23,550 bases of DNA, from IMG/VR virus record IMGVR_UViG_2718218360_000001, one strand, 5' to 3'. This DNA comes from a virus. Its lineage: Duplodnaviria > Heunggongvirae > Uroviricota > Caudoviricetes. Numbering within the stretch: the stretch's first letter is position 1; each line of letters opens with the position of its first letter. This document shows positions 9,573-10,725 of the stretch, one piece after another. Under the pieces are notes generated by a model. The model was not told where the DNA came from, searched no databases, and worked only from the letters and a program-made list of their open reading frames with translations. The position numbers were made by a program, and so were the translations under genes.

Positions 9573-10139
9573 ATGGCTAAACCAGCGCGAAGACGATGTA
9601 ACCGTAAAAGAGAAGATTTAACTGTTAAAAGGATATTTGAGTTACTAAGTTTCGATAAATCTACCGGGGTATTTAGATGGAAAGTTCCCACTCAGGGAAG
9701 GATAGCATTAAATAGTGTTGCTGGAGCTTTTGATTCCAACGGTTATTCAATGATCATGATAGATGGGCGTAGATATAAAACTCACGTCTTAGTTTTTTAC
9801 ATAACTCATAATCGTTGGCCTGCTGGTCAAATTGACCACGTTAATGGAATTAGGACCGACAATAGGCCAGAAAATTTAAGAGAATGCCTGCCAATAGAAA
9901 ATTCAAGAAATATAAGGATCCGAAAGAATAGCAAATCAGGTTGCAGAGGGGTTACTTGGCACAAACGACAGAAAAAATGGAATGTTAGGCTAGGATTCCA
10001 TGGCAAGAGTAAACACTTCGGATGCTTTGATGATCTGGAGTTAGCGGTACTAGTTGCTGAAGAAGCCCGAGATAAGTATTACGGTGATTTTTCCGGCAAC
10101 GAAAGGAGCACTTATGCGAATCTATCGAAGGAAATGTAA
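9573..10139 (+). CDS. HNH homing-type endonuclease with C-terminal AP2-like DNA-binding domain, fused to the first 9 codons of ninG
   Basis: GGAGG then ATG 9573. Translation starts MAKPARRRC (the lambda NinG N-terminus as I recall it), then HNH motif ...[18 protein letters not shown]... and AP2-like [50 protein letters not shown]. Confidence 0.75.
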
Positions 10140-10725
10140 ATGTTGCAATGAATGGTTTATACCAAAATATCAAAATCAATATTGGTGTAATGAGATTTGT
10201 GGAACCAAGATAGCACTCGAACGACGAAGTAAAGAACGCGAAAAAGCGGAAAAGGCAGAAAAGGCAGCAGAGAAGAAACGACGACGAGAGGAGCAGAAAC
10301 AGAAAGATAAACTTAAGATTCAAAAACTCGCCTTAAAGCCCCGCAGTTACTGGATTAAACAAGCCCAACAAGCCGTACACGCCTTCATCAGAGAAAGAGA
10401 CCGCGACTTACCATGTATCTCGTGCGGAACGCTCACGTCTGCTCAGTGGGATGCCGGACATTACCGGACAACTGCTGCGGCACCTCAACTCCGATTTGAT
10501 GAACGCAATATTCACAAGCAATGCGTGGTGTGCAACCAGCACAAAAGCGGAAATCTCGTTCCGTATCGCGTCGAACTGATTAGCCGCATCGGGCAGGAAG
10601 CAGTAGAGGAAATCGAATCAAACCATAACCGCTATCGCTGGACTGTCGAAGAGTGCAGGGCCATCAAGGCGGAGTATCAACAGAAACTTAAAAAACTGCG
10701 AAACAGCAGAAGTGAGGTTGCATGA
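10114..10725 (+). CDS. ninG: NinG (Rap-like) recombination protein with a recoded N-terminus
   Basis: AAAGGAG then ATG 10114. From [19 protein letters not shown]... onward the protein closely follows lambda NinG as I recall it; the first ~25 residues ([29 protein letters not shown]) are divergent and AT-rich but keep the Cys pattern. Confidence 0.85.

Follow-up and report, generated by a model that had tools for sequence, protein, structure and literature searches.

A chimeric ninG gene and an HNH endonuclease open reading frame with a captured ninG start in a lambdoid prophage of Escherichia coli O157:H7: anatomy, probable origin and possible homing

The stretch of DNA considered here, referred to as the window, spans 23,550 nucleotides (nt) and corresponds to IMG/VR record IMGVR_UViG_2718218360_000001. 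It is a decayed prophage, ridden with insertion sequences (IS), that adjoins ssrA in Escherichia coli O157:H7, and it is 100% identical to the sequence of strain BB24-1 and near to that of EDL933. An open reading frame (ORF) for an HNH endonuclease of 188 amino acids (9573-10139; RefSeq WP_001108081.1) is followed by a complete and intact ninG (rap) gene of 203 codons (10114-10725; WP_001223948.1), and both lie on the plus strand, as do all features given below by coordinates unless otherwise stated. The two overlap by 26 nt in different frames, so that ninG resumes at a new ATG (10114) within the end of the endonuclease gene, as had been claimed in an earlier model-made reading of the same letters (the original prediction). 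Downstream (3′) of ninG lie a serine/threonine phosphatase gene and then a lambda-type Q gene. The HNH ORF and the adjoining 5′ part of ninG are together referred to as the cassette. In databases both genes are annotated, the second as recombination protein NinG with its chimeric nature unrecorded; text searches found no published description of this ninG insertion, and the genome announcement of the Shiga toxin (Stx) phage SH2026Stx1, which carries the cassette, makes no mention of it.

The junctions of the cassette were mapped by alignment with lambda, with five other loci of the same arrangement, and between pairs of cassette-bearing (filled) and cassette-free (empty) alleles. On the left lies a remnant of the 3′ end of ninF (9557-9572), recognized by alignment with lambda and with a locus in which ninF is intact (L005, in ETEC1730), as well as from the left-junction strings of 61 loci; upstream of approximately 9556 the DNA of the window is not ninF. 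The remnant carries the Shine-Dalgarno sequence GGAGG (9559-9563), formerly that of ninG and now that of the HNH ORF. It is followed by the captured lambda-type ninG start (9573-9601, ATGGCTAAACCAGCGCGAAGACGATGTAA), which comprises the ATG, codons 2 to 9 (MAKPARRRC) and a further AA, is identical to lambda ninG at 29/29 positions, and today opens the HNH ORF, of which it makes up the first 9-10 codons. The earlier claim that the endonuclease ORF begins with ninG's own ribosome-binding site, ATG and first nine codons is thus borne out. The captured start is invariant in 69 of the 70 loci examined, the remaining locus having one single-nucleotide polymorphism (C9R). In loci with intact ninF, such as L005, the ninF-ninG junction is collinear with lambda all the way to 9601, and therefore the nine shared codons are not a matter of chance. 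The exact boundaries between filled and empty alleles likewise speak against a separate upstream gene that merely happens to share these codons.

Between 9602 and 10197 lies a foreign AT-rich block of 596 nt, delimited by the filled/empty breakpoints, by its guanine-plus-cytosine (GC) content and by its nucleotide diversity (pi), that holds the body of the HNH gene and the foreign 5′ end of ninG and is without a counterpart in lambda. Comparison of filled and empty alleles shows that this block stands in place of 64 nt of ninG (lambda ninG nt 30-93, codons 10-31), with boundaries exactly at 9601/9602 and 10197/10198; the locus thus bears a replacement rather than the insertion after codon 9 that the original prediction had described. 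Identity to lambda returns sharply at 10198 (TGTGGAACCAAGATAGC), in agreement with the predicted return of lambda-like sequence, and continues at approximately 95% to the end of ninG. The predicted end of the feature at 10200 accordingly lies close to the right junction and does not mark the end of a gene. The GC content is 0.39 in the HNH body (9602-10113), 0.29 in the 5′ part of ninG (10114-10197) and 0.49 in the remainder of ninG.

As a result of this replacement the ninG start is present twice: a lambda-type copy (MAKPARRRC-) is fused to the endonuclease, and a foreign copy (MRIYRRKC-) opens the working gene. Reading of the sequence shows a diverged direct repeat, of which the left copy (9588-9601, CGAAGACGATGTAA) comes from the duplicated ninG codons 6-10 and ends in ATGTAA at 9596-9601, and the right copy (10126-10139, CGAAGGAAATGTAA) ends in ATGTAA at 10134-10139 and includes the HNH stop codon. 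Recombination between the two ATGTAA repeats would leave a hybrid junction, CGAAGACGATGTAAATGTTGCAATGAATGG, as the footprint of precise loss, and no match to this sequence was found in IMG/VR. An imperfect 20-nt tandem duplication spans the left junction (9591-9631, AGACGATGTAACCGTAAAAG / AGAAGATTTAACTGTTAAAAG; 80% matches, score 54 in Tandem Repeats Finder), and may be a trace of the formation of that junction or a chance occurrence in A-rich sequence.

Two other types of intervening element were considered for this locus and rejected. An intron was rejected since no Rfam family matched 9200-10800 at E ≤ 1 and the downstream frame is shifted, the reading frame of the restarted ninG being +1 relative to the ATG at 9573. 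An intein or in-frame insertion domain (for example of the ShiLan type, PMC11855218) was rejected since the block is in frame at its 5′ junction only; the HNH ORF is stopped by the TAA at 10137-10139.

The first in-frame start codon (ATG, GTG or TTG) in the foreign part of the HNH ORF occurs only at Met59, and therefore translation of the endonuclease must use the captured ninG ATG at 9573. The start of this ORF is annotated inconsistently, giving 188 amino acids in RefSeq and a longer ORF of 606 nt with an upstream start in the GenBank entry of phage AU6Stx1. An in-frame GTG at 9492 lengthens the ORF to 215 amino acids through 9492-9572, in the context of the window only, and a 215-residue database entry (P0002) exists. 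ATG 9573 is regarded as the conserved start because the extension consists of non-ninF DNA that is missing where ninF is intact. A consensus scan for a dedicated promoter or terminator of the HNH gene yielded nothing meaningful.

The 188-residue product matches PF13392 (HNH_3) over residues 68-107 with 42.7 bits against a cut-off of 24.8 (E = 4.2e-11), and it also matches PHROG 99 (phrog_99, 'HNH endonuclease') at 6.6e-71. Its relatives number more than 100,000 in an exhaustive HMMER search, with 41,085 library proteins at E ≤ 1e-10. The predicted nuclease core (9774-9893) is of the beta-beta-alpha-metal, I-HmuI-like type according to Pfam, invariant alignment columns, the structural model and Foldseek; D88, H89, N101 and N110 are invariant in a family alignment of 14 homologues. 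In the AlphaFold model, with a mean predicted local distance difference test (pLDDT) score of 82, the strands (residues 86-89 and 102-105) and the helix (107-113) of the core have a pLDDT of about 90, and the top PDB match in Foldseek is I-HmuI (1u3e; probability 1.00, E = 8e-3, 19% identity over 99 aligned columns). Downstream of the core is a predicted AP2-type DNA-binding domain (residues 123-171; 9939-10085), modelled as a three-stranded sheet (127-130, 135-142 and 145-152) and a helix (155-173), that superposes on AtERF1 (1gcc) with a root-mean-square deviation of 1.3 Å over 51 columns and on the AP2 domain of TEM1 with 1.1-1.7 Å. The AP2 matches in Foldseek have a probability of 1.00 but E-values of 0.1-0.4, and a sequence search of solved structures returned only a marginal AP2 match (WRI1, E = 0.19). 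The description of this protein as HNH plus AP2-like had been made from the letters alone, and it agrees with an HNH_3 match above the cut-off, an AP2 match below it, and a model that resembles both I-HmuI and plant AP2 domains.

The combination of HNH_3 and AP2 is a recognized architecture of homing endonucleases, in group 2 of the so-called His-Me finger enzymes (PMC5714182), and by its sequence the ORF would be placed in the HNH_3/AP2 endonuclease family, whose characterized relatives are homing endonucleases. Single-domain relatives align to residues ~13-174 only (with starts at ~13-17), and do so from their own residues 2-5; the model is disordered at residues 2-12 (pLDDT below 50) and at 181-188. 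Because homologues align only to ~13-174, the ninG-derived residues 1-10 and the last ~14 residues are add-ons to the endonuclease. The homologue with a readable context (P0004, 44% identical) is encoded by a free-standing HNH gene; it lies in a T7-like contig (L010, JGI contig Ga0502773_0151152, 1033-1927), directly 3′ of a gene for T7-type endonuclease I, a Holliday-junction resolvase. This second case of the HNH lineage beside a gene for a junction-resolving nuclease may be coincidence.

The restarted ninG has its own Shine-Dalgarno sequence, AAGGAG (10103-10108), which was recognized by reading of the sequence 5 nt before ATG 10114 and sits in the C-terminal tail of the HNH ORF, outside the family alignment (residues beyond ~174). 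The product matches PF05766 (NinG) with 271.5 bits (5.2e-81) over profile positions 5-192 of 193, and the stretch with its C-terminal His-Me motif is identical to lambda. Nucleotide comparison and tblastn delimit a foreign 5′ end of 28 codons (10114-10197). The original prediction had described this part as AT-rich and divergent, which its GC content of 0.29 supports, and had put its length at about 25 codons, slightly too short. The resident, lambda-type remainder begins at codon 29 (lambda codon 32, TGT) and extends over 10198-10725; it is 95% identical to the ninG genes of lambda and Nil2 and has the same polymorphisms as cassette-free alleles. The cysteine pattern is kept, as had been claimed, with C8, C10/C11 and C25 in the foreign part and C29 derived from lambda. 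The cysteine spacing in the foreign part is CxxC, as in the NinG proteins of Nil2 (933W type), ES18 and SE21, and differs from the Cx4C of lambda.

Within this gene, three kinds of variation were noted among the loci compared. W24L (TGG to TTG, window-equivalent position 10184) occurs in the foreign segment of 7 of the 70 loci (L006, L020, L026, L027, L038, L040 and L154). Locus L156 has an internal ninG deletion from ~10190 to ~10484, and its apparent E27* and neighbouring changes are an effect of this deletion in an ungapped comparison and are not point mutations. In the resident part, a 9-nt repeat, GAAAAGGCA, is present in 3.1 copies at 10240-10267; the extra copy adds three residues to an EKA-rich stretch and was encountered only in O157-type cassette-bearing alleles among the loci compared, and in none of the 80 cassette-free alleles. 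This cassette-free comparison set consists of the 80 best matches to lambda NinG in IMG/VR.

The source of the 28 foreign codons bears on how the arrangement came about. Compared with Nil2, ES18 and SE21, only 44-46 of 81 nt are identical (54-57%), and 12-13 of 27 codons are non-synonymous; downstream, ninG is 87-96% identical in nucleotide sequence to the same natural alleles. These values do not suit the 'recoded' copy of ninG named in the original prediction. Read literally, that prediction entails a precise insertion after codon 9, followed by recoding of the target under selection for escape with the protein retained, and it could draw on an HNH ORF that opens with ninG codons 1-9, on a preserved cysteine pattern, and on a divergent stretch that stops abruptly at 10197. 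Such a course of events is highly improbable. Escape from an endonuclease needs few changes, and here about half of the codons are non-synonymous; insertion and recoding would not give rise to an additional, diverged version of ninG codons 1-8 that is preceded by a Shine-Dalgarno sequence; the GC content of the segment does not exceed that of the HNH body and is far from that of the resident gene; the cysteine spacing is that of other natural NinG lineages and not of lambda; and partly recoded intermediates were found in none of the 70 loci. Because of its very low GC content and its own ribosome-binding site, the foreign 5′ end is most likely the donor phage's own ninG start, brought along with the endonuclease gene.

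It is firmly supported that a single chimeric replacement built the arrangement, with the endonuclease fused to the start signals of ninG and ninG rebuilt from a foreign 5′ end. In the event we envisage, one ancestral recombination would have exchanged 64 bp of lambda-type ninG (codons 10-31) for 596 bp of AT-rich DNA from a donor phage outside the present sampling. The incoming DNA would consist of a nearly complete, free-standing HNH_3-AP2 endonuclease gene, minus its own start, together with the Shine-Dalgarno sequence and the first 28 codons of a donor ninG homologue that lay just downstream of the endonuclease gene and overlapped it. Searches for the donor by means of the HNH protein covered an index of 5.8 billion proteins, a representative library of 1.8 billion, GTDB species genomes, IMG/VR, and JGI/ENA metagenome contigs, and did not find it; in all of these collections the matches were either the cassette itself (98-100% identical) or relatives at ≤48%. 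A query with the 40-residue foreign N-terminus of NinG returned seven short, partial E. coli entries only and missed full-length NinG itself, so that this search is uninformative. By tblastn against phages, the best matches to the foreign N-terminus are 56-63% identical. Its 'PKY' feature recurs in the NinG of Proteus phage Pm34, and that phage was rejected as the donor despite the common feature.

Of 5,426 complete E. coli genomes, 537 contain the block at ≥99% identity; it occupies 570 places in total, with at most 3 in one genome. It is also carried by the isolated Stx1 phages AU6Stx1 and SH2026Stx1, and by 57 IMG/VR contigs and 8 full-length gut-metagenome contigs; the members of the protein cluster are nearly all from E. 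coli and rarely from Salmonella. Of the 537 matching E. coli records, none has a best match that spans less than 80% of the cassette, and the AT-rich ninG start was present without the HNH gene in none of the 80 cassette-free alleles, which speaks against uninterrupted alleles having had this N-terminus already. Left and right junctions are identical in all 70 loci examined, which indicates a single origin of the cassette. The sequences around it vary, with at least 11 left and 6 right clusters of flanking sequence; L005 has the canonical order ninB-ninE-ninF-[HNH]-ninG-ninH-ninI-Q, and in other contexts ninF is swapped for other DNA, as in the window.

Nucleotide diversity was computed on unique haplotypes; the genome set over-represents O157:H7. 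Diversity is 0.0047 in the block, 0.021 in ninG at 10198-10400, and 0.087 at 10401-10725, the last value being inflated by loci in the alignment that are IS-interrupted or non-homologous; the diversity of the block is 4-18 times below that of its flanks. Carriers have 35 haplotypes of the 3′ part of ninG, several of which are identical or nearly so to cassette-free alleles. For example, L027 (a carrier) and L086 (cassette-free) are 100% identical over 1,177 nt from the first base past the block, and for L005 and L140 the identity is 99.8% across 1,500 nt; in the filled/empty pairs the flanks are 98.6-100% identical right up to the breakpoints. Within 130 nt of the junction, carriers and non-carriers have multi-site haplotypes in common, and a comparison of carriers with cassette-free alleles shows that polymorphic sites at distances of 8 and 32 nt are not associated with cassette presence. 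Spread of the cassette across many lambdoid backgrounds, via exchange in the flanks, is therefore firmly supported. A co-conversion gradient, with diversity rising with distance from the cassette, had been considered and was dropped, as cassette-free alleles have the same profile and near-junction linkage is absent. Across the 70 loci, the HNH ORF has as many synonymous as non-synonymous polymorphisms (12 each) and a single frameshift, which suggests mild purifying selection.

Endonuclease activity may have contributed to this spread. By analogy with known systems, an endonuclease gene beside a variant neighbouring gene is the arrangement that intronless homing would predict (PMC2988022). While phages replicate together in the lytic cycle, the enzyme would nick or cut ninG alleles that lack the cassette, within the 64-bp segment or close to it, and repair off a cassette-bearing genome would copy the cassette in, a form of intronless homing as seen for T4 SegF, SegG and MobE; the divergent, donor-derived ninG segment would shield carriers from their own enzyme. 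Both adjectives of the original prediction, 'mobile' and 'cleavage-resistant', thus describe properties that we infer. Taken as a whole, structure and origin together with homing, this explanation is assigned a probability of roughly 0.55. The account of structure and origin is on its own very probable, and spread driven by the endonuclease, by homing that is active or was so recently, falls a little short of even odds.

The population pattern is compatible with homing and is not diagnostic of it, as homing and ordinary recombination are not separated by these data. The cassette could instead be a passive module that arose once by illegitimate recombination and was moved solely by the general homologous or homeologous recombination (Red, RecA, Rad52-like) that shuffles the nin region, with an endonuclease that has no activity or plays no part in spread. 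Mosaicism is a classic trait of the nin region, whose flanks recombine freely, with haplotypes common to cassette-bearing and cassette-free alleles, and ES18 and SE21 have other small genes between ninF and ninG. In the literature, temperate phages are shown to swap DNA with defective prophages through homologous recombination of a relaxed kind (PMC3945230, PMC2327257); the window itself is a decayed, IS-ridden prophage in which the gene may be merely carried along, and in O157 chromosomes the cassette coexists stably with cassette-free ninG. This explanation is considered rather unlikely, since 69 of 70 loci retain the catalytic residues and the ORF, and synonymous changes exceed what neutrality would predict; since markers 8-32 nt from the border are already unlinked, which is easier to explain with breaks at the site; and since a divergent ninG patch beside an endonuclease gene is the arrangement of proven free-standing homing endonucleases.

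Several points weigh against the combined explanation of chimeric origin and homing. Intermediate relatives of the HNH protein (48-98% identity) are absent from all searched collections, and because neither donor nor intermediate was found the gene order of the donor is itself an inferred one. An insert of single origin is low in diversity with or without homing, and where lambdoid prophages are abundant, linkage at the border can also decay because ordinary recombination is frequent or because mismatch repair leaves patches. O157:H7 genomes have one cassette copy together with about three other ninG-homologous places, and conversion in these lysogens is not evident. Both the frequencies and the contrasts in diversity are biased by the choice of the comparison set and by the dominance of O157:H7. 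With regard to the protein, the Pfam AP2 match has 22.1 bits against a cut-off of 33.3 (E = 1.9e-4), and the Foldseek E-values are weak, none being ≤0.001. The coexistence of the cassette with other ninG copies fits a nin region that is silent in lysogens, and Stx-phage copies that are of the Nil2 type.

A further alternative is that the nuclease has been domesticated or weaponized, and benefits the phage by cutting rival lambdoid phages and co-resident prophages, in marker exclusion or competition upon superinfection, or by aiding recombination by NinG/Rap, rather than propagating itself. It is expressed from the translation signals of ninG in the delayed-early operon, the 26-nt overlap would link its translation to that of ninG, and it is intact in many lineages, inducible Stx1 phages included; homing endonucleases are known for marker exclusion and can also be of help to phages (PMC2988022; PMC13096335). 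However, adjacency is all that points to a functional link with NinG, the cutting of rivals and homing are indistinguishable with these data, and nin is dispensable in lambda, so that selection on the locus would be weak. Domestication is accordingly judged improbable, and a contribution of homing to the spread of the cassette is retained as part of the preferred explanation.

The ninG cassette can be compared with several known systems. I-HmuI (1u3e) and other members of His-Me finger group 2 (PMC5714182) have the same nuclease family and fold with conserved His and Asn residues, and a modular combination of nuclease and DNA-binding domain in which AP2 is a documented module; I-HmuI differs in that it is encoded within an intron, carries NUMOD and helix-turn-helix modules in place of AP2, and has been proven to nick DNA. 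Precedents are documented both for intronless homing in which flanks are co-converted and for coding regions invaded by endonuclease genes (PMC2988022). In T4, the genes for SegF (beside gene 56) and SegG (beside gene 32) resemble the cassette in that a free-standing endonuclease gene adjoins a gene with a carrier-specific variant flank, that gene and flank are co-inherited, and that presence or absence is polymorphic at a fixed site among related phages (PMC2988022). The Seg enzymes are of the GIY-YIG type (SegF being a hybrid) and their genes are intergenic in a lytic phage, whereas the cassette has an HNH_3-AP2 gene with a borrowed start codon inside a coding region of temperate lambdoid phages. 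For the Seg enzymes, both cleavage and biased inheritance have been demonstrated; in the case of the cassette both are putative.

MobE in nrdA of Aeromonas phage Aeh1 and MobA in T4 gene 60 (PMC2988022) are further cases in which a free-standing endonuclease gene of the HNH family is found within a coding region, through an event that resembles transposition, and the function of the host gene is kept. There the host gene is split into two polypeptides that must reassemble, whereas at ninG nine codons are stranded, a full substitute N-terminus is supplied, and NinG stays one polypeptide. In phage epsilon34, also a temperate lambdoid (P22-like) phage, an HNH ORF has likewise captured a resident N-terminus and start signals: gene 31 joins the N-terminus of eaE, in frame, to a putative homing endonuclease of the HNH type (PMC2629481). 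Gene 31 differs from the cassette in lying in the early left operon, in the resident gene concerned, and in its Lactobacillus-phage-like HNH lineage, and its description makes no reference to a substitute for the gene that was interrupted. A free-standing endonuclease with a co-inherited variant flank, an HNH gene within a coding region, and an in-frame fusion to a resident N-terminus thus each have a precedent. What is particular to the ninG cassette is the combination of all three, with a stranded fragment of only nine codons and a complete new N-terminus that keeps NinG in one piece, in lambda-type temperate phages of pathogenic E. coli.

The surroundings of the cassette in the window are those of a heavily rearranged element. 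Two neighbouring tyrosine recombinase genes are found at the start of the element (1-2521), and its end (18900-23550) adjoins ssrA, which specifies transfer-messenger RNA (tmRNA), and smpB. The cargo includes the type III secretion effector genes espW and espM2, a member of the DUF1076 family, and IS66 accessory genes, and virion genes are absent; the element presumably resembles prophage Sp17 of the Sakai strain. An ORF at 5469-6767 encodes 432 amino acids here and corresponds to a hypothetical protein of 412 amino acids annotated in BB24-1 (locus 5469-6707); the BB24-1 locus is 66 nt shorter overall and matches in two pieces, which suggests an indel or a difference in repeat number in or near the gene. 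From ~7200 to 9255 lies a remnant of an IS30 transposase gene on the minus strand, interrupted by an IS3-family element (IS1203/IS629-like) with orfA at 7729-8055 and orfB at 8052-8942; EDL933 has the IS30 remnant without the IS3 insertion. Independent IS hits are encountered in other carriers, at the 3′ end of the HNH gene in PK8241 (L004) and in ninG in L038.

Nearer to the cassette, the AT-rich DNA that replaces ninF contains a perfect hexanucleotide microsatellite, (TATTTC) x 8.8, at 9326-9378. Its copy number is variable among near-identical loci, EDL933 (L002) and AU6Stx1 (L001) each having two units more. On the other side, the window is without ninH, and the stop codon of ninG directly overlaps the start of the serine/threonine phosphatase (ninI-like) gene at 10722; in lambda and in ETEC1730 (L005), ninH separates ninG from the phosphatase gene.

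Most of the free-standing homing endonucleases that have been studied by experiment are from lytic phages (T4, T5 and SPO1-like). The nin region is dispensable in lambda, as is known from the nin5 deletion, and lambda crosses are routine. The ninG cassette would offer a common and easily handled case in lambda-like temperate phages, in which filled and empty alleles differ by one defined block. We tentatively suggest that the cassette may be an active homing element of temperate lambdoid phages that breaks cassette-free ninG upon co-induction of prophages or superinfection and so drives local gene conversion. If this is true, it would be a site-specific motor of mosaicism in the nin region of Stx-converting and other prophages of pathogenic E. 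coli, with a self-contained design, a host start taken over and a substitute, immune N-terminal domain supplied, by which the invasion of a coding sequence costs the phage nothing. The locus illustrates a way for a selfish gene to lodge in a coding sequence and yet spare it: the start signals are taken over and a substitute gene start is brought along. An active enzyme could introduce a bias into recombination between the many lambdoid prophages carried by O157:H7 and other Shiga-toxin-producing E. coli; with an inactive one, the cassette would simply be a well-resolved example of mosaic phage evolution.

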